From a virus (taxonomy: Duplodnaviria > Caudoviricetes), in the IMG/VR virus record IMGVR_UViG_3300021256_002372, positions 61,540 through 125,539 of that record: a stretch of 64,000 nt of DNA, one strand, 5' to 3'. Every line of letters begins with the position of its first letter. Positions within the stretch are counted from its first letter, which is position 1. Positions 5,409 through 58,000 of the stretch are shown here, piece after piece. The notes under the pieces are model-generated. The model was not told where the DNA came from and made no database searches. It worked only from the letters and a program-made list of their open reading frames with translations. A program made the position numbers and the translations under genes.

Positions 5409-5462
5409 GATGCTTTGAGGGAGGCATGTCCTCCCTTTACATATTTGCAAGAAAGGAGGCAG

Positions 5463-7424
5463 ATGGACATGCGCAGAAAGAGGCTTCAGATCGATATCGA
5501 GACCTATTCCGATGTTGATCTGGTGACTTGCGGTGTGTACCGCTATGTGGAGGGTGACTTCCATATTCTGCTGTTTGCCTATGCTTTTGACGATGAGGAT
5601 GTGCAGTGCGTAGACCTTGCCTGTGGCGAACAGCTCCCGCAGGAGGTTGTGGATGCGATCCATGACAGCAGTATCATCAAAGCCGCATGGAATGCGCAAT
5701 TTGAGCGCATCTGCTTATCGAAATACTTTAACACACAGCTCAGTCCCGATGACTGGCAGTGTTCTATGGTCTGGGCGGCATCATTGTCCCTGCCGCTGAA
5801 GCTGAAATATGCTGCTTTGGCATTAAAGACCGGTGAGCAGAAAGATGATGTCGGTGAACGGCTGATCCGTTACTTTTCCATTCCCTGTAAGCCGACCAAA
5901 TCCAACGGCGGCAGGACACGCAACCTCTCGGAACATGCACCGGAGGACTGGAAATTATTCAAATCCTACTGTATTCAGGATGTAAGGACAGAGCGTGATA
6001 TCCGCTACCGGCTGGAGAAGTTCCCGCTGCTTCCGCAGGAATGGAACTACTACCACATGGATCAGCGCATCAATGACAGAGGTGTCCTGATCGACAAGGA
6101 GCTGGTGCAGCAGGCGATCACCTGTGACATGATGCTTTCCGAGGAGATGACGCAGAAGGCGTATGCGCTGACCGGGCTTGAGAATCCGAATTCTGTATCG
6201 CAGCTCAAGGCCTGGCTGGAAGATCGCGGCATCGAGGTCGATTCCCTCGGCAAGAAAGATGTAGCATCGCTCATATCCGATCTGGACAAGCACAGTATAG
6301 ATTCAGATGCGCTGGATATGATGAAGCTCCGCCTGCAAATGGCGAAGTCCTCTGTGAAAAAATACCAAGCGGCGGAACGTTACATCTGTCAGGACGGCAG
6401 GGCGCACGGTTTGTTCCAGTTTTCCGGAGCGAACCGCACGCAGCGATGGGCAGGACGCGGCATTCAATTGCAGAATCTGCCTCAGAACCACATCGCAACG
6501 CTTGATGAAGCTCGTGAGCTTGTAAAGATGGGCTGTTTCGACATGATCGAAACGCTCTACGGAAATACGCCGGATATCCTGTCTCAGCTTATCCGAACGA
6601 TGCTGATTGCAAAGCCCGGACACATCTTTATCATCGCGGACTTTAGTGCGATTGAAGCGCGGGTGCTGGCGTGGCTTGCCGGGGAACAATGGCGGCTCGA
6701 TGCTTTCAAATCCGGACAAGACATCTACTGTGCGTCGGCATCACAGATGTTCGGTGTCCCAGTTGTGAAGCATGGCATCAATGGTGAATTGAGACAAAAA
6801 GGTAAGGTTGCGGAGCTCGCCTGCGGATACGGTGGGGCTGCCGGGGCGCTGATCTCAATGGGTGCATTGGATATGGGACTGAAAGAGGATGAATTACCGG
6901 ATATTATATCATCATGGCGTGAAGCCAATCCGGAGATCGTCAAATTCTGGTACGCGGTGGAGAAAGCCGCCATCGAAACGGTCAAAGATCACACGGAGCG
7001 AACGGTCGGCAGGATCGGATTCCGGTTTGCGGCGAACACCCTCTGGATCGTTCTCCCGTCCGGCCGCAGTCTTGCCTACATCAAGCCCAAGCTCCAACCG
7101 AATCGTTTCGGGCGTATGGCACTGACCTTTGAAGGCTTGGGTGCCAACAACAAGTGGGTGCGGCAGGAGACCTACTCGGGCAAGCTGACCGAGAACATCA
7201 CACAGGCGACTGCCCGCGATCTGCTTGCCGAAGCCATGTGGAGGATGGAGCAGGCAGGACTGGATATTGTCGGACACGTTCATGATGAGGTCATTCTGGA
7301 AGTGCCGGAGGGCAGCATCACCGTGGACGAGGTCTGCGGTATTATGAACCGGAATCCGAAGTGGGCGGACGGCTTGCCTTTGGCATCCGCAGGATATACC
7401 GGACTTTGGTACTACAAATCGTAA
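5463..7424 (+). CDS. Phage family A DNA polymerase (last codons altered by RIT insertion)
   Basis: Exo I DIETYS, motif A DFSAIEARVLAW, motif B RQKGKVAELACGYG, motif C HVHDE. Confidence 0.95.
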   Translation: MDMRRKRLQIDIETYSDVDLVTCGVYRYVEGDFHILLFAYAFDDEDVQCVDLACGEQLPQEVVDAIHDSSIIKAAWNAQFERICLSKYFNTQLSPDDWQCSMVWAASLSLPLKLKYAALALKTGEQKDDVGERLIRYFSIPCKPTKSNGGRTRNLSEHAPEDWKLFKSYCIQDVRTERDIRYRLEKFPLLPQEWNYYHMDQRINDRGVLIDKELVQQAITCDMMLSEEMTQKAYALTGLENPNSVSQLKAWLEDRGIEVDSLGKKDVASLISDLDKHSIDSDALDMMKLRLQMAKSSVKKYQAAERYICQDGRAHGLFQFSGANRTQRWAGRGIQLQNLPQNHIATLDEARELVKMGCFDMIETLYGNTPDILSQLIRTMLIAKPGHIFIIADFSAIEARVLAWLAGEQWRLDAFKSGQDIYCASASQMFGVPVVKHGINGELRQKGKVAELACGYGGAAGALISMGALDMGLKEDELPDIISSWREANPEIVKFWYAVEKAAIETVKDHTERTVGRIGFRFAANTLWIVLPSGRSLAYIKPKLQPNRFGRMALTFEGLGANNKWVRQETYSGKLTENITQATARDLLAEAMWRMEQAGLDIVGHVHDEVILEVPEGSITVDEVCGIMNRNPKWADGLPLASAGYTGLWYYKS

Positions 7425-7546: not shown

Positions 7547-8581
7547 TTATCTGAGGCCACAAAGTCTGGCCATTGTTTCCTCGTCATTTATGATAGAAGT
7601 AATCTCTTCCATATCTGCCGATGGAGCGGGCTGAACCCTTTCCATTGCCTCGCGCATTTTGTCTATAGATGGCAGAGCATAGATTCTCGTTGTTTCTATC
7701 TGCTCATGGCCAAGAAATGTTGCTATCATCAGAGGATCCACACCTTCCTGATAAAGATTGGTAGCTCGTTCAGCTCTGAGAAGATGCGGATACACTCGCT
7801 CTGGAAGCCTTCTTCCTTGATCTCGTAATTCATCTGAATACTTTCTGACAATTCGTCTGATTGTTGCTGTGCTGATACGATCCAATTTGCCTTTAATAAC
7901 GGTATAGAAAAGCCATCCTTCAGAATTCTCGGTGGAACATGGATGATACAGACTAATGTATTTCCGTAAATGTGTAGCTGTATTTTTGCTTATTGCTACA
8001 TCGCGCTCCTTACGTCCTTTACCATGTACATGAATGCAGAGAGTTTCAAAATTAATATCATCGAGATGAAGAGTTGTGAGTTCCTGTACTCTAACAGCCG
8101 CATCATAGAGCAAAATTAGAATGGTACGGTCACGAATTCCGAAACGAGTTGCTGGAGGTTGAGCAAGAAGGGCTTCCAGATCCTCTTCAACAAGTAGATT
8201 CTTTTCGCGTTTAGGAACCTTCTGTGATCTTACTTTTGATACATTGAGAGCAACTGATTCCAGCGACACATCATTGTCCGCACAATACTGCACATATGTT
8301 TTAATCGCAGACAGTCTGACATTACATGTCGAAATTCCATTGCCGTTATCTTTAAGATACGCTATAAAGTCAAGAAGGAAATCTTTAGTGCAATCCTTAA
8401 ACTGAAATTTCATGATAGAAATCTTACGGTAATTCACCACATATCTGCGAAATGCGGACAAGGAATCGGTATATGAACGAATCGTCTCTGGGCTTTTCCC
8501 TAACTGCTTATCTAGATAGGTTGTAAAAAAGGAGAGTGTTCTCGAAAAGAAGCAGTCCTTTCCCAATGATTTAGCTTTCAT
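7547..8581 (-). CDS. Tyrosine recombinase (RitC-like)
   Basis: RDR..AAVRVQE, GKGRK, HLLR, LGH, TRIY; GGAGG RBS before ATG 8581. Confidence 0.9.
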   Translation of the reverse strand: MKAKSLGKDCFFSRTLSFFTTYLDKQLGKSPETIRSYTDSLSAFRRYVVNYRKISIMKFQFKDCTKDFLLDFIAYLKDNGNGISTCNVRLSAIKTYVQYCADNDVSLESVALNVSKVRSQKVPKREKNLLVEEDLEALLAQPPATRFGIRDRTILILLYDAAVRVQELTTLHLDDINFETLCIHVHGKGRKERDVAISKNTATHLRKYISLYHPCSTENSEGWLFYTVIKGKLDRISTATIRRIVRKYSDELRDQGRRLPERVYPHLLRAERATNLYQEGVDPLMIATFLGHEQIETTRIYALPSIDKMREAMERVQPAPSADMEEITSIINDEETMARLCGLR

Positions 8582-9548
8582 ACTGCACCTCCGGTATAAT
8601 TCGATTTGAAATTGTGTCTTTCCTGTGTATAGTGTCAAGGGCTTCCTGTGCTTGATGATAGTAGTATAATGATTCATGAATTGAAGCATGCCCTAGAAAC
8701 TTGCTGAGGTACGGGAGCATTTTTTCTGGATCAATTCCTTCCGCAATCCATCCATTGATTCTGTCAACAACAAAAGTATGCCGAAAAGACTTTATCGTAG
8801 GAGGATTGCTCAAATCGGAAAACCGAGTAGCCCGCCACGTTCTCAGAAAATAATCTCTAACCGTAACAGGATCAATACTTTTTCCTGCTTTGGTACCAGG
8901 AAAAAGAAGTGTCTCAGTGGGGCATTCTGATAAGATATATTTTTTGTACTCATCAAGCATTCGCATAATATCATCGGTGACCCAGAGCTTTCTGTCCTTG
9001 TCACCTTTTGAGTGATAAATATGAATTGATGATTCATTAAAATCGATATACTCCCATTTCAACGCTAATGGTTCTGACAGACGCATTCCACAACAATAAT
9101 ATAGCCTGAACAGAACCCTACATTCTTCCTTGAATCGAGAGCCAGTACTATTCTTAGCAGGCTGTAAATTGTCAAGTTTTTCAAAAAAATCTATGCGTTC
9201 ATCGTTTGTGAATATGTGTGGATTCTTTGAAGTGGTTGCTTGTGTCAGTTGAGGAAGATATGCATATTCTCCAAGAGACAGTATATATTTTGACAACTGC
9301 CTGATCACGCTTACTCTAACATATCTTGCATTTAGACCCTCTGTTTCGCGTTGAATTGACCACGCATCAGATATTTCTTTTGTTACTGTTGTCTCAGAAT
9401 AATCGTTCTGAACACAAAAGGTATCAAATTCCTTCAAAACGTCAGAATTCGAGCTGTACGCAAATCCTGATGCACGCTTTTCAGTTATCAGCCCTATTAT
9501 GTGAGGTGCGAGTTTACTTGAATATGCATAATCACGTTGAGGCTTCAC
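8571..9548 (-). CDS. Tyrosine recombinase (RitB-like)
   Basis: GMRLSE, SKGDK, SFRHTF, LPYLSKFLGH, YYY. Confidence 0.9.
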   Translation of the reverse strand: MKPQRDYAYSSKLAPHIIGLITEKRASGFAYSSNSDVLKEFDTFCVQNDYSETTVTKEISDAWSIQRETEGLNARYVRVSVIRQLSKYILSLGEYAYLPQLTQATTSKNPHIFTNDERIDFFEKLDNLQPAKNSTGSRFKEECRVLFRLYYCCGMRLSEPLALKWEYIDFNESSIHIYHSKGDKDRKLWVTDDIMRMLDEYKKYILSECPTETLLFPGTKAGKSIDPVTVRDYFLRTWRATRFSDLSNPPTIKSFRHTFVVDRINGWIAEGIDPEKMLPYLSKFLGHASIHESLYYYHQAQEALDTIHRKDTISNRIIPEVQYES

Positions 9549-11184
9549 TTTTCATCACCGTCCTTTTGATTGGAAGACAACAAAGCTTTTCATTCACAAT
9601 ATCCGTTGCCAGATATCTATTGACACTGCTATAATCTGAATGCCCCAAGGAGTCTTTTATCATGCTTGTATCGCTTCCTGTAGCCAGCAACCTTGAAGCA
9701 AAAGTTCTTCTTAAAATATGGAATTTACTGCATTTTTCATTAGTTGCCCTTCGTAAAGCATCACGACAAATATGTGTACTAACGACATTGTTAAACGGGC
9801 TTTCATGTGAGAGGAAGACGTAGCCATTAGGCACCTTAGGACGTCCTTTAAGAATGTAATTTCGTATACGTGTTCCAACTAACAATGACATTGGCAGAAC
9901 GATAGGGCGGTATGTCTTCTGCTGCGTGATAGATATTTCCATACTTCCCCAATCTATATCGCAGTATTTTAGACTAACAATGTCTATTCCACGGAACCCC
10001 ATATAGAGACCAAGTGATAAAATCGCTGCATCACGTATTTCAAAAGGTGTTGAGGCATTTAAACAGTAACACTCTATCATTTGAATTTCTGATTCCGAAA
10101 GTATTTCTACAATCCTTCTGGAAGCTGCGTTACGTGACGGAAGTGATTTTGAAAAATCACTTTTTGTATAGCCGGCTGCAAATAAGAATCTAAGAAAACT
10201 CTTTACATCATAAAGATAATTGTTTTTTCCATTGCAAGACGCAGCGGCCATTGCGTTGTTGTATCCTTTTACTAAAGTTGGTGTAATTGATTCTATTTCA
10301 TGTACGCCATTCATTTCAATATATCGCATGAAAGATACCGCACCTGAACGATGGACTTCGATTGTTGATCGTGAGAAATTATCCTTTTGTTCTTCGGATA
10401 AATAATGCAGTATGATGCTTTTAAAGTGGTCACTAAGTTTTGCCATATTAGTATCGGATTTGTACTGGTGAGGAAGTTTTCTCACGATGAATACATTTCC
10501 ATGAACTAAGTAGAACAAAAATTTATCCATGCAAGATTTTCTGGCACCAGAAAATCCTTTGAATGCAGGAAACTTCTCCATCATGTTCACCCAATATTTA
10601 GAAACGGATGGCGTAAAATCGATTTTTAATTCAGAGAGCAGTACGTATAGCATCTGTAGGTGAACGATATATTTATCTCTCAGGTTTTTTTCAGCGTTCG
10701 TATTTTTTCCTTTTAGGTGTTCGGTCATTTCCAGTGCTTTTTCCCAATAACTGGTTGGAGATAGCGTTATCTCTGATTTCTTACCTGATAGGTTCTTTAG
10801 TACGTTAAGATCAGAATTATTCAACTCAAATAAAAGAGCACTTGCCTGCACAGGTGCGGTTGATAACAACGGCAGATAACTTGGAATAATTCCTTTTTTG
10901 GCTAACGATTGAAGAAATAGTTTCATAGCCACAATTCCACTGTATATACCATTCTTTTTCCGTTCTTCATCGAGGTATAATGATACAAGATTTCCATTTA
11001 TACTCTTGTCATCATATATTCCATGCTTCATCATGAACAGCATAAAATTAGAAATCTGCTCCAGTTGAATTTTAACGCTTCGTGAGGTGCTACAATTTAG
11101 ACGTTCGGCTTGATACCAAGCAAGAACTGCCTTGAAATCATCAGATAGTGCTTCATCATAATGATTGTTTATTATATTATTCAT
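9532..11184 (-). CDS. Tyrosine recombinase (RitA-like, long N-terminal extension)
   Basis: RDAAI..GFRGID, QQKT, HILRRTFAS, LGH, RYL; AAGGAGG RBS before ATG 11184. Confidence 0.88.
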   Translation of the reverse strand: MNNIINNHYDEALSDDFKAVLAWYQAERLNCSTSRSVKIQLEQISNFMLFMMKHGIYDDKSINGNLVSLYLDEERKKNGIYSGIVAMKLFLQSLAKKGIIPSYLPLLSTAPVQASALLFELNNSDLNVLKNLSGKKSEITLSPTSYWEKALEMTEHLKGKNTNAEKNLRDKYIVHLQMLYVLLSELKIDFTPSVSKYWVNMMEKFPAFKGFSGARKSCMDKFLFYLVHGNVFIVRKLPHQYKSDTNMAKLSDHFKSIILHYLSEEQKDNFSRSTIEVHRSGAVSFMRYIEMNGVHEIESITPTLVKGYNNAMAAASCNGKNNYLYDVKSFLRFLFAAGYTKSDFSKSLPSRNAASRRIVEILSESEIQMIECYCLNASTPFEIRDAAILSLGLYMGFRGIDIVSLKYCDIDWGSMEISITQQKTYRPIVLPMSLLVGTRIRNYILKGRPKVPNGYVFLSHESPFNNVVSTHICRDALRRATNEKCSKFHILRRTFASRLLATGSDTSMIKDSLGHSDYSSVNRYLATDIVNEKLCCLPIKRTVMKSEAST

Positions 11185-11264
11185 GCATATCCTCCTTGAA
11201 TTTGATATTATTATTATCCACATCTTTCATGAGGAGGATATGTCTATTTAGCGTGGCTACGCTT

Positions 11265-20333: not shown

Positions 20334-20790
20334 TGCGATACAGCTTGACAGCGGTGCGGAGGTCATGTACGGCAGCGATCAGGTGTATGACACTTATCCT
20401 TGCCGCTTTCCAACTGTAGAGTTTCAGCTTGCGGCAACGGACGCTCTTGTGGAGGTCGCAGATCGTATCCGAATGGAGAACGGATTCCTCCCGATGCATC
20501 CGAGGGACGGGCGCACGGACGATGTTGACAATGACGGCTGGTACGACTTTTATATCGGGATCAGCAAGCTCCCCAGCGATCATAAGGAATGCAAACTTGA
20601 CAGCAGCATCAGCTTCGTGGTCGTCAATTCAGATTCCGATGACAACGAGGATATGTACACAATTGACCTGACTGAAACAGAACAGGCGTATGTGTATGAA
20701 ATACTGAACCGGCAGTGCCGGAAATATCATGGAAAGGACTGTGCCGAGCTTCTGGCAGAGTCCGAAAAGGAGCTGATGGATACAGCATGA
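20305..20790 (+). CDS. Hypothetical protein
   Basis: GGAGG RBS; coupled to nrdD. Confidence 0.6.
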   Translation: MTLTENFIRNAIQLDSGAEVMYGSDQVYDTYPCRFPTVEFQLAATDALVEVADRIRMENGFLPMHPRDGRTDDVDNDGWYDFYIGISKLPSDHKECKLDSSISFVVVNSDSDDNEDMYTIDLTETEQAYVYEILNRQCRKYHGKDCAELLAESEKELMDTA

Positions 20791-22928
20791 GAATTATTAA
20801 GCGGAACGGCGTAGAAGTGCCGTATGACTGCGAAAAGATACGAGCCGCGATCACGGCGGCGAATTCAGAGGTTGACGACCAGATCAGCGATACAGCTATC
20901 GGCTTTATTGTCGGTAATGTAGAAAAACGGTGCGATGCCCTTGCAAGACCTGTCCATGTCGAGGAAGTACAGGACATGGTTCTCGATGAACTGGACAAGG
21001 CCGAAGCGTACAAACTTGCACGGCACTACAGCGAATACAGACTACTGCACGAACAGCAGCGCAGGATGAACACCACAGACGGCAAAATTCTGAGCCTGCT
21101 CGAACGCAACAACGAGGAAGCAAAACAGGAGAATGCCAACAAAAACCCGATCATCAACAGCACCCTCCGTGACTATATGGCAGGCGAAGTCAGCAGAGAC
21201 ATCTGCCGCCGATTCCTGTTTCCAGCAGATGTGATCGCTGCCCATGATGAGGGTATCATCCATGTGCATGATCTGGACTACATTGCAGAGCCGATGCATA
21301 ACTGCTGTCTGGTCAATCTGGCGGATATGCTTCAGAACGGCACGGTGGTTTCCGGCACAATGATCGAAAAGCCGCACAGCTTTTCGACAGCCTGCAATAT
21401 CGCAACGCAGATCATTGCACAGGTCGCATCGAACCAGTACGGCGGGCAGACGATCAGTCTTGCACACCTTGCACCTTTTGTTGATGTCAGCCGTCAGAAG
21501 ATACGAGCTGAAGTATTCGAGGATGTGAACTGCGACTGCGGCGCAAAGTTGTCTGAAGATGAAATCGACCACATCGTTGAAAAGCGTGTACGCCGGGAAG
21601 TCAAGCGCGGCGTACAGACCATTCAGTACCAGATCAATACACTGCTCACCACCAACGGACAGACGCCGTTCGTGACAGTATTCATGTATCTCGATGAGGT
21701 TCCGGAGGGTCAGAACCGTGATGATCTTGCAATGATTATCGAGGAGACACTGCTTCAGCGCATCGAGGGTGTGAAAAATGAAAAGGGTGTCTGGATCACG
21801 CCGGCATTCCCCAAGCTGATCTATGTTCTCGATGAGGACAATATTCACGCAGACAGCAAGTATTACTACCTCACGGAGCTTGCGGCGAAGTGTACGGCAA
21901 AACGCATGGTTCCCGACTATATCTCCTCAAAGGTGATGCGAAAGCTCAAGGGCGATGTGTATGCCTGCATGGGTTGCCGCAGTTTTCTCACTCCTTCGAA
22001 CGATCACAAGTATTACGGGCGCTTCAATCAGGGTGTTGTGACGATCAATCTGGTGGATGTGGCGTGTTCTTCTGGTGGTGATGAGGATAAGTTCTGGCAG
22101 CTTCTGGATGAACGCTGTGACCTCTGCTTCAAGGCACTGATGTGCAGACATGAACGGCTCAAAGGAACGCCGTCCGATGTTGCGCCGATCCTCTGGCAGA
22201 ACGGTGCGCTGGCAAGACTGAAGGACGGCGAGATTATCGACGATCTTCTGTATAACAACTACAGTACCATTTCCCTTGGCTATGCAGGCATCGCAGAGAT
22301 GACCTATCGTATGACAGGCTGTTCGCATACAGAGCCAGACGGAAAAGCATTTGCACTGAAAGTTATGCGATTCCTAAACGACAAGTGCAGCAAATGGAGA
22401 GCCGAGACAAATATCAGCTTCTCACTGTACGGAACGCCGATGGAGACCGTCACCTACAAATTCGCTCAGTGCCTTCAGCGCAGACATGGCATCATTCCTC
22501 ATGTGACGGATAAAAGCTATATCACCAACAGCTATCACGTTCATGTCACCGAGCCGATCGATGCGTTTTCAAAGCTGACCTTTGAAGCGGAGTTTCAGGC
22601 GCTTTCTCCGGGCGGTGCGATCTCCTATGTGGAAGTACCGAATCTGCAGAACAACATCCCAGCGGTACTGGCGCTGATGCGGCATATCTACGAAACAATT
22701 CTGTATGCCGAGCTGAACACCAAGTCTGATTACTGTCAGGCCTGCGGCTATGACGGCGAGATACAGATCACCGAGGAGGACGGCAAGCTGATCTGGGAAT
22801 GCCCGAACTGCGGCAACCGCGATCAGCGCACACTGAATGTCTGCCGCCGCACCTGCGGTTACCTCGGAACGCAGTTCTGGAATCAGGGGCGCACCGCTGA
22901 GATCAAAGACCGGGTGATGCACCTGTGA
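20787..22928 (+). CDS. nrdD: Anaerobic (class III) ribonucleoside-triphosphate reductase
   Basis: ATP-cone IIKRNG, HNCC, MGCRSFL, CQAC..CPNC, glycyl radical RRTCGYL. Confidence 0.96.
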   Translation: MRIIKRNGVEVPYDCEKIRAAITAANSEVDDQISDTAIGFIVGNVEKRCDALARPVHVEEVQDMVLDELDKAEAYKLARHYSEYRLLHEQQRRMNTTDGKILSLLERNNEEAKQENANKNPIINSTLRDYMAGEVSRDICRRFLFPADVIAAHDEGIIHVHDLDYIAEPMHNCCLVNLADMLQNGTVVSGTMIEKPHSFSTACNIATQIIAQVASNQYGGQTISLAHLAPFVDVSRQKIRAEVFEDVNCDCGAKLSEDEIDHIVEKRVRREVKRGVQTIQYQINTLLTTNGQTPFVTVFMYLDEVPEGQNRDDLAMIIEETLLQRIEGVKNEKGVWITPAFPKLIYVLDEDNIHADSKYYYLTELAAKCTAKRMVPDYISSKVMRKLKGDVYACMGCRSFLTPSNDHKYYGRFNQGVVTINLVDVACSSGGDEDKFWQLLDERCDLCFKALMCRHERLKGTPSDVAPILWQNGALARLKDGEIIDDLLYNNYSTISLGYAGIAEMTYRMTGCSHTEPDGKAFALKVMRFLNDKCSKWRAETNISFSLYGTPMETVTYKFAQCLQRRHGIIPHVTDKSYITNSYHVHVTEPIDAFSKLTFEAEFQALSPGGAISYVEVPNLQNNIPAVLALMRHIYETILYAELNTKSDYCQACGYDGEIQITEEDGKLIWECPNCGNRDQRTLNVCRRTCGYLGTQFWNQGRTAEIKDRVMHL

Positions 22929-23446
22929 ATTACTGTGGTCTAAATAAAAACGATATTGCCAACGGCGAAGGTGTCCGTGTATCGCTGTTCGTCAGCGGAT
23001 GCCGGAATCACTGCAAGGGCTGCCACAACCCTGAGGCATGGGACTTCAGCTACGGGAAACCCTTTACAGCCGAAACCGAAAAAGAGATTATCGATGCCCT
23101 GCGTCCTTCTTGGATACAGGGTATTTCCATACTTGGCGGTGAACCCTGCGAGGAGGAAAACGAGCGTGTGCTGTTGCCGCTACTGAAGAAGATATGGTGG
23201 GAGATGCCGGAAAAAGATATCTGGCTCTATTCCGGATACACCTACGAGATGCTGCGTGGTGAGGAGATACTCCACTATGTCGATGTGCTTGTGGACGGTC
23301 CGTTCCTGTTGGAACAGAAGGACATCTCCCTTCCGTTCCGGGGCAGCCGAAATCAGCGCATCCTCCGTCTGCGAGGCGGTGAGGCGGTCGGGTACCCCGC
23401 CCTCAGTCGAGGGGGCGGAGCTTCCGGGCGTACACCTTCTCGATGA
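22925..23446 (+). CDS. nrdG: Anaerobic RNR activase (radical SAM)
   Basis: SLFVSGCRNHCKGCHN, LGGEP, VLVDGPF, FRGSRNQR. Confidence 0.95.
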   Translation: MNYCGLNKNDIANGEGVRVSLFVSGCRNHCKGCHNPEAWDFSYGKPFTAETEKEIIDALRPSWIQGISILGGEPCEEENERVLLPLLKKIWWEMPEKDIWLYSGYTYEMLRGEEILHYVDVLVDGPFLLEQKDISLPFRGSRNQRILRLRGGEAVGYPALSRGGGASGRTPSR

Positions 23447-41837: not shown

Positions 41838-42317
41838 ATGCAGATGGCTCAAAGAGGCAGAAAACCAAAGCCCACAGCGATCAAAGAGCTGGAAGGCAAT
41901 CCGGGCAAGCGTCCGCTGAATGATGCAGAACCGAAGCCTGTAAAGAAAGCACCGCCCTGTCCGAAGTGGCTGGAGCCCGAAGCGAAAAAGGAATGGCGCA
42001 GGCTGTCGAAACAACTTGAAGCGATCGGTGTGCTGACCGAGGTAGATCAGGCGGCATTCGCATCTTATTGTCAGGCATACGCCCGTTGGAAGGAAGCCGA
42101 GGAATTCATGACGCAGCACGGCACGATCGTAAAAACAAAATCCGGCTACTGGCAGCAAGTGCCGCAGGTCAGCATTGCACAGACCTATCTGAAAATCATG
42201 AACAAGATTGCGGAGCAGTTCGGTCTGACCCCGGCGGCAAGAAGCCGTATCACTGCCGGTGCAGATATGAAGGACGCTGCCGTTGACGATATGGATGCAC
42301 TTCTGGGAGGTGGATGA
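41838..42317 (+). CDS. terS: Terminase small subunit, P27 family
   Basis: GRKPKPTAIKELEGNPGKR..FGLTPAARSRI. Confidence 0.93.
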   Translation: MQMAQRGRKPKPTAIKELEGNPGKRPLNDAEPKPVKKAPPCPKWLEPEAKKEWRRLSKQLEAIGVLTEVDQAAFASYCQAYARWKEAEEFMTQHGTIVKTKSGYWQQVPQVSIAQTYLKIMNKIAEQFGLTPAARSRITAGADMKDAAVDDMDALLGGG

Positions 42318-44983
42318 TGGCAAGACCAGCAAAAGCAAGAGAAAGACCCGCGAACTACCCGAAACTCACCGACTATCAGCCCACCCGTTTCATGCTGCCG
42401 GAATCACACTACGATGAGGCAAAGGCGGACAGGGCTGTTCGTTTTATCGAAAACCTCTGCCACACCAAAGGTCGCTGGGCGGGTAAACCGTTCTGGCTCT
42501 TGCCGTGGCAGGAGCAGATCATCCGGGATATATTCGGCATCGTCAAAGAGGATGATACCCGGCAGTTTCGCACGGCATATGTCGAAATACCCAAGAAAAA
42601 TGGAAAGCAGCTTGCATTGGATACACCGATCCCGACACCGCAGGGGTTCACTAATATGGGGGATCTGAAGGTCGGAGATACTGTATTTGATGAAAACGGC
42701 ATCCCGTGTCATGTGGTTGCAAAAAGCCCTGTGGATGATACAGAAAAGGCATACAAGCTGACCTTCAAGGACGGTACTTCGATCATTGCCGGTGAACGGC
42801 ACCTGTGGAACTGTCAGTATATTTACGGCAAGCGTAAGGATGTCCTCTGGACAACCGGCGAGATCTACCGCAGAACATCGGAATACAGACAACGGTTTTC
42901 AGACAGACCTCAGTCAAAGCGGGATTCCCTGATCCGAATCCCTGTGTCCGGTGTCCTTCAGACCGCAAGGGCTGAACTGCCGATTGATCCGTATCTATAC
43001 GGCTACTGGCTCGGAAACGGCAATGCAACCAAGCCGGAGATCACCGCCCGGACGGAAGATGTCGAGGACATTATCTCGTTTATTCCGTATAAGGTACACA
43101 ACCGCTATCCACAGAAATGCGGCGGCAGTGAGATCGTGAAGTACAATGAATTGAAAGCGGTGCTGCTCGGCGGCTTCCGTGAAAAAAAGATTCGGTCAGA
43201 ATATCTGAGGGCATCCGCAGAGCAGCGATGGGCATTGCTGCAAGGTCTGATGGATTCAGATGGCTGTATCGGTGAACGCAAGGGGCAGAGCGTGTATGTC
43301 ACAACGCTGCGAGAGCTGGCACTTTCCGTCAGAGAACTGCTGTGGTCGCTCGGAATCAAAAACGCTGTAAAATGCGAGCCTTCTACACGGCACGGGTGGC
43401 CGACCGGAGAGATTTTGTATATCGTCCGATTTACCACCTTTGAAGATCAGCCGACATCAAGGCTGAAACGCAAATACACACGCACACGGGCGCGGGTAAA
43501 AGAAACTCGCTCCTGTTTTCATTATCTGCTGGATATTCAGCCTGTGGATCATCCCGTGAAAATGCAGTGTATTCAGGTGGACAGTCCGAGTCACCAATAT
43601 CTCGCAGGAACGTCATTTGTGCCTACGCACAATAGCGAGCTTGCGGCGGCGATCGCACTGTATCTCTTGTACGCCGATAACGAGCCGTCCGCCGAAGTCT
43701 ACGGTGCTGCCGCTGACCGACAGCAGGCTTCTATCGTTTTTGACGTTGCAAAACGAATGGTGGAAATGACGCCGGCGCTTCTCAAACGTTCCAAGATCAT
43801 GGCGGCGACAAAGCGTCTGGTAAACTACAGTAATGTCGGCTTTTATCAGGTGCTTTCGGCGGAGGTCGGTACCAAGCACGGTCTGAATGTATCCGGTCTG
43901 GTGCTTGATGAGCTTCACGCGCAGCCGAACCGCAGCCTTGTGGATGTTCTGACAAAAGGCTCCGGTGATGCGAGAACGCAGCCGCTGTACTTTCTGATTA
44001 CGACAGCGGGAACGGATAGAAATTCAATCTGCTACGAATATCACACCAAAGCAAAAGATATTCTGGACGGCAGACGCATCGACCCGTCCTTCTATCCCGT
44101 GATCTACGGACTGAATGATGACGATGACTGGAACGCGGAGGAATCGTGGTACAAGGCAAATCCCTCACTCGGATACACCATCACCATCGACCGTGTGCGG
44201 GATGCCCACCGGGAAGCCCTGACCAATCCTGCGGAAGAAAATGTATTCCGTCAGCTGAGACTTGACCAGTGGGTCGGAAGCGCGGTCGCATGGATTCCGG
44301 AGCATATCTACGACAGAGGAAATCTGCCGATTGATTTGGAATCCTTGCGGGGACGGGAGTGCTATGCGGGACTGGATCTTTCCAGCACATCAGATATCAC
44401 TGCATTTGTTCTGGTGTTTCCGCCTCTGACCGAGGGCGATAAATACATCGTTGTTCCTCACTTCTGGCTGCCGAGAGAAACCCTTGACCTGCGTGTCCGG
44501 CGCGATCATGTGCCATACGATGTTTGGGAACGCATGGGCTTGTTTCATGTGACTGAGGGCAATGTGGTGGATTACAATTTCGTGCGGAAAACGATCAATG
44601 AGCTGCACACGGTGTATAACATCAAGGAGATCGCTGCCGACCGCTGGAATGCGACACAGCTTATCACAGATCTGATCGGAGATGGATTCACAGTCGTGCC
44701 GATGGGCATGGGATTCAAGGATATGTCGCCCCCGATGAAGGAATTGTACAAGCTGCTGCTCGAAGGCAAATTCATCCACGGCGGCAATCCCGTTCTCAGA
44801 TGGATGGCAGGAAATGTGGTCGCTGAAATGGATGCGGCAGAGAATATCAAGCCATCCAAGAAAAAGTCAACAGAAAAAATCGACGGCATTGTCGCATGGA
44901 TCATGGCGCTTGACCGAGTGATACGCCATGAAATGCAGGGCAGTGTCTATGACGAACCCGATCATGACCTGATCGTTTTGTAG
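42314..44983 (+). CDS. terL: Terminase large subunit containing an intein
   Basis: Walker A KKNGK|S split by the intein; LDELH; GLDLSS; KIDG. Confidence 0.95.
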   Translation: MMARPAKARERPANYPKLTDYQPTRFMLPESHYDEAKADRAVRFIENLCHTKGRWAGKPFWLLPWQEQIIRDIFGIVKEDDTRQFRTAYVEIPKKNGKQLALDTPIPTPQGFTNMGDLKVGDTVFDENGIPCHVVAKSPVDDTEKAYKLTFKDGTSIIAGERHLWNCQYIYGKRKDVLWTTGEIYRRTSEYRQRFSDRPQSKRDSLIRIPVSGVLQTARAELPIDPYLYGYWLGNGNATKPEITARTEDVEDIISFIPYKVHNRYPQKCGGSEIVKYNELKAVLLGGFREKKIRSEYLRASAEQRWALLQGLMDSDGCIGERKGQSVYVTTLRELALSVRELLWSLGIKNAVKCEPSTRHGWPTGEILYIVRFTTFEDQPTSRLKRKYTRTRARVKETRSCFHYLLDIQPVDHPVKMQCIQVDSPSHQYLAGTSFVPTHNSELAAAIALYLLYADNEPSAEVYGAAADRQQASIVFDVAKRMVEMTPALLKRSKIMAATKRLVNYSNVGFYQVLSAEVGTKHGLNVSGLVLDELHAQPNRSLVDVLTKGSGDARTQPLYFLITTAGTDRNSICYEYHTKAKDILDGRRIDPSFYPVIYGLNDDDDWNAEESWYKANPSLGYTITIDRVRDAHREALTNPAEENVFRQLRLDQWVGSAVAWIPEHIYDRGNLPIDLESLRGRECYAGLDLSSTSDITAFVLVFPPLTEGDKYIVVPHFWLPRETLDLRVRRDHVPYDVWERMGLFHVTEGNVVDYNFVRKTINELHTVYNIKEIAADRWNATQLITDLIGDGFTVVPMGMGFKDMSPPMKELYKLLLEGKFIHGGNPVLRWMAGNVVAEMDAAENIKPSKKKSTEKIDGIVAWIMALDRVIRHEMQGSVYDEPDHDLIVL
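42608..43633 (+). mobile_element. 342-aa class 3 intein (Gln1) with LAGLIDADG homing endonuclease
   Basis: QLALDTPIPT..HLW..GYWLGNG..LQGLMDSDG..MQCIQV..PTHN|S. Confidence 0.9.
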
Positions 44984-54137: not shown

Positions 54138-54518
54138 ATGGCTATCAAGAAGATCATCACCGTTGACGGCATCGAAGTCCCGTTCAAGGCGAGCGCAACG
54201 CTGCCTCGCCTGTACCGTGCCAAGTTCCGCAAGGATATCTTCAAGGACTTCTCTGCACTGAAGACCTCTGTTGACGAGAGCGATGAGGAAAACTCCGGTC
54301 TCGGTATCGAGAGCCTGGAGGTCTTTGAGAATATCGCATGGACAATGGCAAAGCACGCCGATCCGCAGGGCGTTCCGGACAGCCCGGACGAGTGGCTGGA
54401 GCAGTTCAACACCTTCTCGATCTACGAGGTACTGCCGCAGCTCTTTGAACTGTGGGGCGTGAACCTGGAGACGCAGGCAGAGTCAAAAAAAAATCTCGCC
54501 CAGTTGACCGCGAGATGA
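54138..54518 (+). CDS. Tail assembly chaperone G
   Basis: Between major tail and tape measure genes; ends AESKKNL at a slippery A9 run. Confidence 0.82.
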   Translation: MAIKKIITVDGIEVPFKASATLPRLYRAKFRKDIFKDFSALKTSVDESDEENSGLGIESLEVFENIAWTMAKHADPQGVPDSPDEWLEQFNTFSIYEVLPQLFELWGVNLETQAESKKNLAQLTAR

Positions 54519-54679
54519 CAACGCCGCTGTTCCTTCTCCGATGTGTGCAGATCGGGCTGAGTTTATCTGACCTTGATCTGCTCACCATCGGAATGGTCAA
54601 CGAAATGTTCATTGAAAAGGATAATGACGACTATGATTACCCCTATAAAGCAACTCAGGCGCAGATGGATGCCTTTTAA
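54485..54679 (+). CDS. Tail assembly chaperone T segment (-1 frameshift product GT)
   Basis: A9 run at 54485-54493 followed by a -1 frame ORF ..MTTPLFLLRCVQIG..KATQAQMDAF. Confidence 0.75.
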   Translation, partial: KKKSRPVDREMTTPLFLLRCVQIGLSLSDLDLLTIGMVNEMFIEKDNDDYDYPYKATQAQMDAF

Positions 54680-54942
54680 TGCACTCCGTGTGTCACTCTA
54701 TCCTCTACCTCGGCTCTTTTTCCATCGTTAAAACGGTCGAGAGAGCCGACGAGGTAGCCCGTGATGCGGCGTACCCGGTCAAACGGGATATCTGCAAACT
54801 CATATTTCAGGTCTACAAAGTCGCCGTCCGGTGTGATCGTCATTTTATTGATGATCTTATTGGGATATAGTTCTTTTGCACGAGCGATATATGTGTCAAT
54901 TTCCTGCTGAGGGATCTGCTGTCCGATTACTTCTATTTTCAT
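54676..54942 (-). CDS. 88-aa stand-alone NrdD-type glycyl-radical domain protein (moron)
   Basis: RRITGYL..FNDGKRAEVEDRVTH matches the NrdD C-terminus RRTCGYL..WNQGRTAEIKDRVMH. Confidence 0.82.
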   Translation of the reverse strand: MKIEVIGQQIPQQEIDTYIARAKELYPNKIINKMTITPDGDFVDLKYEFADIPFDRVRRITGYLVGSLDRFNDGKRAEVEDRVTHGVH

Positions 54943-55030
54943 TTTATATTCACCTACAAGTTCAGTATTTCATAGTAAAGCCCCTACCGGAACACAGAGG
55001 TGGTTGCATTACCCGGCAGGAGCTATAACT

Positions 55031-55059
55031 ATTATAATGTATATCTTTGAAAAAGTCAA
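55031..55059 (-). promoter_or_regulatory. Sigma-A promoter TTGACT-N17-TATAAT for the glycyl-radical moron
   Basis: Near-consensus boxes on the minus strand. Confidence 0.75.
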
Positions 55060-55083
55060 CTGAAAAATGGGAGGTGATATCGC

Positions 55084-58000
55084 ATGGCAAACAGAATCAA
55101 GGGTATTACCGTTGAGATCGGCGGCGATACCACAAAACTCAGCAAAGCACTTGAGGGTGTCAACAAAAACATCCGAAACACGCAGACACAGCTAAAAGAT
55201 GTAGAAAAGCTGCTGAAGCTCGATCCGACAAATACGGAACTGCTGTCGCAGAAACAGCGATTGCTTGCCGATGCCGTATCATCGACCAGTGACAAGCTCG
55301 AAACGCTGAAAAAAGCAAGCGAACAGGCGGCAAAGACCAAGGACAATTACGATGCTTGGAAGGCGAAATACGATCCGCTGAAGCAGAAGATCACTGAGAC
55401 GGAGACCAAACTCGCTGACCTGAAAGAGCAGGCAAAAACTGCCGATGAGCAGCTTGCAAAGGGCGAGATCTCGCAGGAGAAATATGATGCACTGCAAAGG
55501 GAGATAAAGGAAACGACAGATGAACTGTCCGGACTGAGACAGCAGGCTAAGGATGTGTCTGATGAATTCGGACATCCGATCTCACCGGAGCAGTACGATT
55601 CCCTTCAGCGTGAAATTATCGAAACAGAACAGGAGCTTCAGAACCTACAGCGTGAAGCGGACAACTCCCGCACGGCACTTGTGAAGATCGGTGAAGCCGG
55701 CGAGTCGATGGAAAAGGTCGGTGACAAGATCGCAGGTGTCGGCACCAACCTGACTAAATATGTGACCGCCCCGATTCTCGGATTGGGTACTGCTGCCGTG
55801 AAAACGACGGCGGATTTTGATGCTTCCATGAGCAAGGTCTCCGCTGTGTCCGGTGCGACCGGTGAGGATCTGGAGGAGCTTCGTGCCAAAGCCCGTGAGA
55901 TGGGCAGTCAGACGAAATTCTCCGCATCAGAAGCCGCCGATGCCATGAACTACATGGCGATGGCGGGTTGGAAAACAACGGATATGCTCGACGGTGTTGA
56001 GGGTATCATGAACCTTGCCGCCGCATCTGGCGAGGACTTGGCGACCACATCGGATATCGTCACCGATGCTTTGACGGCACTCGGCATGAGCGCAGAGGAT
56101 TCGGCACATTTCGCAGATATTCTGGCAGCGGCATCGAGTAATGCCAATACCAATGTGTCGCTTATGGGCGAATCGTTCAAGTTTGTTGCACCTGTGGCGG
56201 GTGCGATGGGCGCATCTGCGGAAGACTTGTCTATTGCGCTGGGGCTCATGGCGAACAGCGGTATCAAGGGCTCTCAGGCGGGTAACAGCTTGAAAAATGC
56301 ACTGGTAAACCTTGTCAAGCCGACCGATAAACAAGCTGCGGCGATGGAAAACCTCGGCCTTATCACAACGGAAACGGTCAATGTGATCGACCAGGCAGAA
56401 GTTGACAAGGCAATGGCGAAGGTCGAGAGCAAGACCATCGACGTGCAGAAAGCGCAGATCGCATACAACGATGCTGTGGAGAAATACGGCGCGGAATCCT
56501 CGCAGGCGCAGACCAAAATGCTGAATCTGCAAAAGGTCGAAAATGCCCTGACCGCTGCGCAGGAGGAACTGACCAAAGCGCAGCAAGGCACAATTGAAAC
56601 CGTCAGCACCGGGCAGTCTGCTTTTGTGGATGAGTACGGCAACATGAAATCGCTCGGCGAGATCATGAACATCCTGCGGCAAAACCTCGGCGCGGTCAAT
56701 GTTGACCTTGTGGACAGCGAGGGCAATCTGCGTGAATATGATGACATCATCGCAGAGCTGGAATCGACCGAAGAAGGTCTGACGCAGGCAGAACAGCTCA
56801 AAAATGCGGCGATCATTTTCGGCAAGCAGAACCTCTCCGGCATGATGGCGATCATCAATGCGACCGAGGAGGACTATAACAAACTGACCGATGCAATCTA
56901 CGGCTGCGAAGGTACTGCACAGAATATGGCGGAAACCATGCAGGATAATCTCAGCGGTCAGCTCACCATTTTGAAGTCGCAGCTTCAGGAGCTTGCGATC
57001 AGTTTTGGCGACCTGCTCATGCCGACCATTCGTGCGATCGTCAGCAAGATTCAGGCGTTTGTGGATAAGCTGAATGCGCTGTCTCCGGCAACCAAAGAAA
57101 CCATTCTAAAAATCGCACTGGTAGCGGCGGCGCTCGGACCGCTGCTTGTCGGCATCGGCAAAACGATCTCCACGGTCGGCAAGCTGATGCAGCTCATTTC
57201 CAAAATGCCGCAGATCATTGCAAGCTGTAAAGCCGTATTTGCAAAGCTTGGCGCGGCTATCGGAGGCATATCCGCACCTGTGGTCGCTGTTGTTGCGGTC
57301 ATCGCTGTACTGATCGCCGCTTTCAAGCACCTGTGGGATACAAATGAAGATTTCCGGAACAAGATCACGGCGATCTGGAAGCAGATCAAGGGTGCATTTG
57401 AAAAGCTGACCTCTGGTATCGTGGACAGGCTCAACGGTCTGGGATTTGACTTCAAAAACATCGGTGAAGTCATCCATGCCGTGTGGGAGGGGCTGTGCAA
57501 TTATCTCGCACCTGTCTTTGAAACGACTTTCAAGATCATCGCTGATGTGCTGTCGGCGGCGGTGGATATTATCCTCGGCATTGTCGATGTATTCATCGGC
57601 ATTTTCACCGGCGACTGGGACAAGGCGTGGACAGGAATCAAGGAGCTTTTCTCCGGCATCTGGGATGCTATTGTGGGTATTCTGGACGGCGCACTGAACC
57701 TGCTCTGTAACCTGTTCGGCACGGATCTCGAAACGGTTAAGTCCTTCTGGACGGATGTCTGGACAAACATCAAGGCGTTTTTCGTGAATATCTGGAACAG
57801 CATTACCGGCTTTATTACCGGTGTGCTGAATGGCATCAAGACCTTTTTCACGAACGTCTGGACTACGATCAAGGACTTCTTCGTGGGCATCTGGACGGCG
57901 ATCTACAACAGTGTGGCGGAAAAGATCGAGCTGATCCGGTTCGTCATCACGACCGTTTGGAACGCCATTTATACAACGATCAGCACGGTGCTGAATGCGA

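Follow-up and report, generated by a model that had tools for sequence, protein, structure and literature searches.

A phage copy of a small stand-alone protein family carrying the radical loop of class III ribonucleotide reductase

Introduction

Why does a phage carry, among its tail genes, a separate 88-aa protein that ends like the class III ribonucleotide reductase (RNR) NrdD, and which enzyme would such a protein serve? Glycyl-radical enzymes are destroyed by oxygen at the radical glycine. The autonomous glycyl radical cofactors GrcA/YfiD (E. coli) and Y06I (phage T4) are spare parts for O2-cleaved pyruvate formate-lyase (PFL). According to a June 2026 review, spare parts have been identified for no glycyl-radical enzymes but formate lyases, the others being undetermined (PMC13450708), and a 2021 paper treated spare parts for other glycyl-radical enzymes as speculation only (PMC8683613). 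Our survey of the open-access literature found no split or trans-complemented class III RNR. Here, we analysed a 64,000-nt stretch of viral DNA (the window) in which an initial annotation had pointed to such a gene; the family to which the gene belongs makes the spare-part question directly testable for class III RNR.

Results

A minus-strand gene between tail genes

The virus record to which the window belongs has 125.5 kb and encodes DNA polymerase, helicase, primase, terminase and three tandem tyrosine recombinases. The 88-aa minus-strand ORF of the initial annotation is intact (Table 1). It sits between tail-chaperone genes and the tape measure gene, and the late operon around it, to which it is opposed, runs in the order major head (50842), major tail (53486), two ORFs in the chaperone position, the 88-aa gene and tape measure. 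Both chaperone-position ORFs are conserved (PHROGs 709 and 3033), and the tape measure protein has 1626 aa. The same slot between chaperone and tape measure genes is retained in four sister phage contigs (L095-L098). Compared with window positions 54657-55076, three of these (L096-L098) hold an extra ~0.7 kb and ~0.5 kb flanking the small gene in the same gap, which appears to be a cargo hot spot.

The promoter ascribed to the gene in the initial annotation was also recovered. It is directed away from the tail operon, its region is conserved at ~88% nucleotide identity in L096-L098, and it was the sole site with 11 of 12 consensus matches in positions 54300-55400; shuffled versions of this 1.1 kb average 1.2 such sites, so that the promoter taken alone is within chance expectation. 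No terminator was found 3' of the gene. The best reading is that the 88-aa gene is a moron, that is, an accessory gene that brings its own promoter into a phage operon, here in a prophage-like element.

Table 1. Positions of the 88-aa gene, its signals and domains, and the nrdDG genes in the window.
Feature	Position	Strand	Basis
Gene for the 88-aa stand-alone putative glycyl-radical protein	54676..54942	-	ORF list, sequence, Pfam NRDD C-terminal match, homologues, dN/dS
Stop codon of the 88-aa gene	54676-54678	-	
Ribosome-binding site AGGTGA, 7 nt 5' of ATG	54950..54955	-	Direct sequence reading
Putative sigma-70-type promoter TTGACT-N17-TATAAT	55031..55059	-	Consensus scan, 11/12
N-terminal domain, residues 1-49	54796..54942	-	AlphaFold2, hhalign, fold searches, dN/dS
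Glycyl-radical loop and C-terminal helix, residues 50-88	54679..54795	-	Invariant residues, profile matches, dN/dS
Predicted radical site G62 of the 88-aa protein	codon 54757-54759	-	
Phage full-length NrdD, different subfamily	20715..22928	+	Pfam ATP-cone + NRDD + Gly_radical; radical Gly at ORF residue 715
Phage NrdG activase	22925..23446	+	Pfam Fer4_12 / Radical_SAM; TIGR02491 174 bits

An NrdD-type radical loop on a separate domain

Profile searches place the likeness to NrdD at the very end of the protein. Residues 54-85 match positions 533-562 of the 562 positions of Pfam NRDD (29.3 bits, gathering cut-off 26.2, E 4.6e-7). NCBIfam and PHROGs matches are confined to the last ~32 positions of the NrdD models (residues ~54-86), and the NCBIfam NrdD models score 13-40 bits vs cut-offs of 326-764. 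When the family profile was compared with an NrdD alignment using hhalign, only the last 36 columns aligned (probability 98.2%), and no counterpart of the N-terminal half was found in NrdD. The NrdD-like part is therefore the last ~35 residues only, and the claim of an unrelated N-terminal half was borne out.

These last residues show the radical-loop pattern of NrdD, R-x-x-G-Y-L ... N-x-G-K-x-x-E ... R-V-x-H. Across a diverse 83-member alignment of the family, R59, T61, G62, Y63, L64, K75, E78 and R82 are invariant, and the nearest solved sequences are radical loops, those of Prevotella copri NrdD (8P23, residues 691-738, E 2.7e-13) and T4 NrdD. The ten-stranded alpha/beta barrel with the catalytic cysteine finger loop is absent. 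The protein contains zero cysteines, so it has no zinc site and no Cys4 zinc ribbon; the tail-only Pfam match and the missing cysteines agree with the initial description of a protein without catalytic barrel and Zn-binding CxxC pairs.

AlphaFold2, run on the 83-sequence alignment, gave a mean pLDDT of 81.6 and predicted a beta-alpha-beta-beta domain for residues 1-49 (pLDDT ~90) and a helix at 73-81. Confidence was lower for the loop around G62, as is expected of a segment that takes on order only within a partner. The predicted N-terminal beta-alpha-beta-beta fold is specific to the 88-aa family; Foldseek returned no match to the domain in the PDB at E<=0.001. The best VIA-align hits (Z 4.8; the ToxR periplasmic domain and ribosome hibernation factors) were rejected as common small alpha/beta arrangements that are uninformative for function.

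A widespread family of small proteins

A word-indexed search found 459 homologues of 48-154 aa, nearly all of 87-88 aa with 99% query coverage. Most lie on Ruminococcus and Oscillospiraceae chromosomes, on contigs of up to 894 kb, and their annotation is 'hypothetical' or, wrongly, the full reductase. Among 1.84 billion cluster representatives, an exhaustive HMMER search gave 1898 hits; of these, 329 clusters at 50% identity reached E<=1e-10 and are mostly of 85-140 aa. By pattern scans, relatives occur in at least 592 bacterial species and in no fewer than 570 contigs of viruses, and in the Protein Atlas the family is represented by 'hypothetical protein' clusters only, half of them viral. 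Judged from these homologues, the 88-aa gene is a phage-borne member of an unnamed family of putative stand-alone glycyl-radical proteins that is widespread in bacteria. A search for longer fusions found no NrdD with the N-terminal domain of the family embedded, and its three long hits look like chimeras from gene calling. Four longer proteins (P0391, P0127, P0163 and P0228; 200-435 aa) carry the whole small module at the C-terminus, behind unrelated or tape-measure-like sequence; these may be gene-calling run-ons or real fusions.

The loop is of the host type

The window holds a full NrdD and NrdG besides the 88-aa gene. The closest homologues of this phage NrdD have 713-715 aa and cover 97% of the ORF, and its true start is probably ~22 codons downstream of the listed GTG (window 20715-20780). 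The initial annotation had the C-terminal half of the 88-aa protein mirror the phage NrdD. The two are indeed homologous, with 13 of 29 identities at NrdD 710-736 in BLASTP (E 2e-5), but identity is only 45% with a 2-residue gap, whereas the loop is 72-84% identical to the C-termini of long-form NrdDs of Ruminococcaceae, including 26 of 33 loop positions in R. flavefaciens ATCC 19208. The phage NrdD itself is ~27% identical to these ~775-aa long-form enzymes. The loop is thus far closer to long-form NrdD than to the phage NrdD, which makes the module a host-type loop.

The distribution of the family follows the same line. Family members occur in 21 of 82 genomes with long-form NrdD vs 0 of 33 with other NrdD types only (Fisher p = 4e-4, uncorrected for phylogeny or relatedness). 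In addition, all 31 records of other phages that carry the family gene away from any nrdD are without NrdD and NrdG (20 of the 31 are at least 90% complete by CheckV); phage copies would hence rely on the host NrdG and act on the host NrdD. In these nrdD-less phages the family gene often lies beside the holin/amidase cassette, a classic moron site. Against these, the phage of the window is exceptional in that it has an nrdDG pair of its own.

Could the protein instead be a spare part for the phage's own NrdD, activated by the phage NrdG? All three genes are in one genome, and both loops show the RRxxGYL...N.G..AE..DRV.H pattern. This reading is nevertheless improbable, given the gapped match against the much closer host-type loop, the different subfamily of the phage NrdD, the absence of the family from genomes with only other subfamilies, the carrier phages that have neither NrdD nor NrdG, and the position of the gene 32 kb from nrdDG on the opposite strand, so that the nrdD/nrdG adjacency seen among relatives does not extend to the window. 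On sequence grounds the client of the 88-aa protein is likely the host enzyme; the phage NrdD is a possible but less likely one. What stands of the initial interpretation is an intact, conserved stand-alone module linked to NrdD and NrdG in trans, and what is given up is the phage NrdD as the favoured client.

In some genomes the family supplies the only NrdD-type loop found

Class III is the only RNR found in the Ruminococcaceae genomes that we checked. In eight genomes (G004, G005, G019, G030, G041, G051, G057 and G129, several of them MAGs) NrdD ends at most 3 residues from the radical-glycine position, and nrdG follows directly. Two of the eight are cultured isolates, Ruminococcaceae bacterium FB2012 and Ruminococcus sp. 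210702-SL.1.03. The truncated tails read ...ERIKRIRCDC or ...ERMKRISCCK vs ...[FD/FE]RIRRITGYL... in complete enzymes. The sole NrdD-type glycine loop in these genomes is that of a remote, full-length member of the 88-aa family; in G129 the only loop-only match is remote and on another contig. No class I or II RNR was found in any of the eight, an absence that is weaker evidence in the MAGs. A rubrerythrin-linked MAG (G001), in which no RNR was found, was set aside as incomplete.

Since the truncated NrdD is the only RNR of these genomes and the family member supplies the only loop, the reductase must work with the family protein in trans. In some hosts, then, the family protein is the only radical loop for a naturally truncated NrdD and not a spare. 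The window protein aligns over its full length with the members from the eight genomes (53-57% identity), with every invariant residue kept. Where the closest bacterial homologues occur, the genome mostly has a complete long-form NrdD together with one to three family copies, and one genome has a truncated NrdD.

A census of 121 R. flavefaciens-family genomes extended this picture. The truncated form alone was present in 34 of the 115 genomes with NrdD, and all 34 have a separate loop gene; because the genomes are related, these counts are not independent events. In most of the 34 a ~60-aa loop gene lies directly downstream (this short adjacent form occurs in ~27 of 121), whereas in G019, G030, G041, G051 and G057 it is the remote family member described above. 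In G048 the short loop gene is 22 kb from the truncated nrdD. In at least 14 genomes of the census, an 88-aa family member is present elsewhere besides a complete long-form NrdD.

Operon links to nrdD, nrdG and nrdR

Gene order ties the family to the same enzyme. In a Bacillota MAG (L035:2330-5974) a complete nrdD, a gene for a 94-aa stand-alone family protein, nrdG and nrdR form an operon, and the 33-residue radical loop is identical in the complete NrdD and the 94-aa protein, suggesting that the loops in cis and in trans were recently duplicated or evolve in concert. A truncated nrdD, the family gene and nrdG follow one another in phages L117 and L124, with overlapping stop and start codons. 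Adjacency to nrdD or nrdG was found among relatives in L035, L117, L124, L150 and others, and nrdD is immediately upstream of the family gene in 11 of 80 viral loci. A SAM synthetase gene adjoins the family gene in 5 of 80 genome loci (e.g. L052:3518-4702); NrdG, the activase, uses SAM as its co-substrate. Comparative genomics thus supports a functional link of the family to NrdD and NrdG acting in trans.

These associations bear on the reading that the 88-aa protein is a decoy or regulator, which would soak up NrdG or occupy the NrdD barrel without catalysis and so throttle or redirect host dNTP synthesis, or would act as a sacrificial, oxygen-reactive radical sink. A free loop by its nature mimics the substrate of NrdG, placement as a moron under a promoter of its own would fit a factor that manipulates the host, and inhibition in hosts with complete NrdD is compatible with the present data. 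Even so, we consider the decoy reading and its variants together unlikely: the members that supply the only loop for the only RNR in eight genomes must be catalytically productive, the window protein resembles those members over its full length with the invariant residues kept, and the bacterial nrdD-X-nrdG-nrdR operons, in which X is the family gene, argue for cooperation.

Another proposal would make the protein a radical carrier for a different glycyl-radical enzyme, such as PFL, or give its N-terminal domain a function unrelated to RNR. The hosts do encode PFL, and fold searches with Foldseek and VIA-align gave no informative match for the domain. However, the operon links are all to nrdD, nrdG and nrdR. 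The Pfam scan, at E<=10, found no match to PF01228 (Gly_radical) or to GrcA-type models, with NRDD as the sole match, and the NCBIfam matches are to NrdD models only. A role with another enzyme is therefore highly improbable.

Both halves of the protein are under purifying selection

Pairwise comparison of the 88-aa gene with the sister phage contigs gave dN/dS values of 0.09-0.16, including 0.045/0.509. Across the family the median is 0.25, with 0.32 for the N-terminal half and 0.10 for the loop half; the 88-aa family is thus under purifying selection in both halves. The initial annotation had named dN/dS and a search for intact ~90-aa homologues as checks, with homologues that are only decayed nrdD fragments as the contrary outcome. 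The ~0.1-0.25 obtained describes a conserved gene under constraint, and the search returned the 329 clusters described above instead of such fragments. We give almost no weight to the idea that the phage captured an nrdD 3' end of which the gene is a non-functional remnant; this idea would account for the short NrdD-like part and the odd position between tail genes but is contradicted by an intact ORF with ribosome-binding site and promoter, by hundreds of full-length homologues with a conserved N-terminal domain, by low dN/dS in both halves and by a gene position that is conserved in sister phages.

Links to oxygen

In three unrelated Ruminococcus chromosomal neighbourhoods the family gene is located directly upstream of, and on the same strand as, a rubrerythrin gene; the rubrerythrin-linked gene is usually divergent from a Crp/Fnr-type regulator gene and is once behind a flavodoxin gene. 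This adjacency was seen at 9-10 of 80 loci, all from an R. flavefaciens-like clade, and the neighbours vary elsewhere. As a family-wide rule it was ruled out, with one clade and ~9 of 80 loci concerned. In the window, a PerR/Fur-type 7-1-7 box with 12 of 14 matches overlaps the -10 element of the promoter. Boxes with at most 3 mismatches occur in 15% of the upstream regions of the family vs 5% of the background, an excess that AT-rich intergenic DNA explains equally well.

NrdD is naturally truncated at nearly the position where O2 cleaves glycyl-radical enzymes. A protein that complements truncated NrdD should accordingly fit O2-cleaved NrdD as well.

Discussion

We propose that the 88-aa protein is an NrdG-activated radical module that arms host-type NrdD in trans, and we consider this probable. 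Transcription of the gene would start at its own promoter and would not depend on the tail operon. An NrdG activase, that of the host or possibly that of the phage, would then use SAM to abstract a hydrogen from G62, and the radical-bearing loop, held on the beta-alpha-beta-beta domain, would dock into the barrel of a long-form NrdD in place of an NrdD loop that is naturally missing or has been cut by oxygen at the radical glycine. Nucleotide reduction could so resume at a cost of 88 residues vs ~780. Such a moron would help the host to make dNTPs, most plausibly while it is exposed to oxygen or afterwards. For activation by the activase of the client and rescue of the O2-cleaved client, the eight genomes with only a truncated NrdD and a family protein give indirect support.

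On our best reading the protein serves as a spare part beside a complete NrdD and as the regular subunit beside a truncated one. The spare-part role beside a complete NrdD is suggested by the redundancy of the two loops and by the near coincidence of the truncation and O2 cleavage sites. The window gene is best read in the same way as a host-directed auxiliary gene: a host with a complete NrdD would receive a spare, a host with a truncated NrdD more of its regular subunit. More tentatively, and as a serious possibility rather than an expectation, phages of strict gut anaerobes may use such a lysogenic-conversion or auxiliary gene to re-arm the only RNR of their host after oxygen damage by means of a fresh radical-bearing loop.

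The closest functional parallel is with GrcA/YfiD and Y06I. Like these, the 88-aa protein is small and stand-alone, with a non-catalytic N-terminal part together with a glycyl-radical loop at the C-terminus; it is encoded apart from the large enzyme, is linked to oxygen-stress or anaerobic regulators and is also phage-borne. As with GrcA/YfiD, the loop-only protein coexists with a full enzyme, in this phage with its own NrdD and in the at least 14 census genomes. Furthermore, the pre-glycine strand retained by truncated NrdD parallels the overlap between YfiD and cleaved PFL (PMC13450708; PMC8683613). In contrast to GrcA/YfiD (IPR011140), the loop is NrdD-type (RRITGYL) and not PFL-type, without a PF01228 match, the N-terminal part is predicted to be a folded beta-alpha-beta-beta domain and not a disordered tail, and the proposed client is a ribonucleotide reductase, for which the protein is obligatory rather than spare in some genomes.

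With the C-terminal glycyl-radical domain of NrdD (8P23; T4 1H78/1H79) the protein shares homology over the last ~35 residues and the same invariant residues, but unlike NrdD (PF13597 / TIGR02487) it has no barrel, ATP-cone or Cys4 zinc ribbon and bears an unrelated N-terminal domain instead. The division of labour resembles that of the split class II RNR NrdJa/NrdJb of Pseudomonas, in which barrel and C-terminal functional module are on separate polypeptides. Unlike the adjacent ~60-aa loop genes, members of the 88-aa family are longer, have their own N-terminal domain, are usually far from nrdD, often stand beside a complete NrdD in the genome and move on nrdD-less phages. New here are the zinc-free loop protein with its own N-terminal domain, carried by phages without nrdD and nrdG, the genomes in which the 88-aa family gives the only loop for the only RNR, and the specificity for an NrdD subfamily.

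If the proposal is true, this would be the first spare part for a glycyl-radical enzyme other than PFL, and the first known case of a phage gene that provides a host enzyme with a protein-radical cofactor module and nothing else. Natural controls are at hand in genomes with truncated NrdD plus the 88-aa family, complete NrdD plus the family, and complete NrdD only. The annotation of NrdD is also affected: about one-third of the sampled bacterial family has a loop-less NrdD, and the small genes are labelled 'hypothetical' or as full reductases. A further implication is that the oxygen tolerance of DNA synthesis may be a trait moved by phages among gut anaerobes.

Two further features of the window are recorded here. 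Three tandem tyrosine-recombinase genes (380, 325 and 563 aa; window 7547-11223, minus strand) immediately follow a DNA polymerase ORF (5415-7424), whose match to the PHROG polymerase profile is limited to the middle and C-terminal part of the profile; the trio looks like an element of the recombinase-in-trio type in or beside the replication module. The large terminase (window 42314-44983, plus strand; 889 aa) has ~120 unmatched residues between its ATPase and nuclease matches and may contain an insertion between these two parts.
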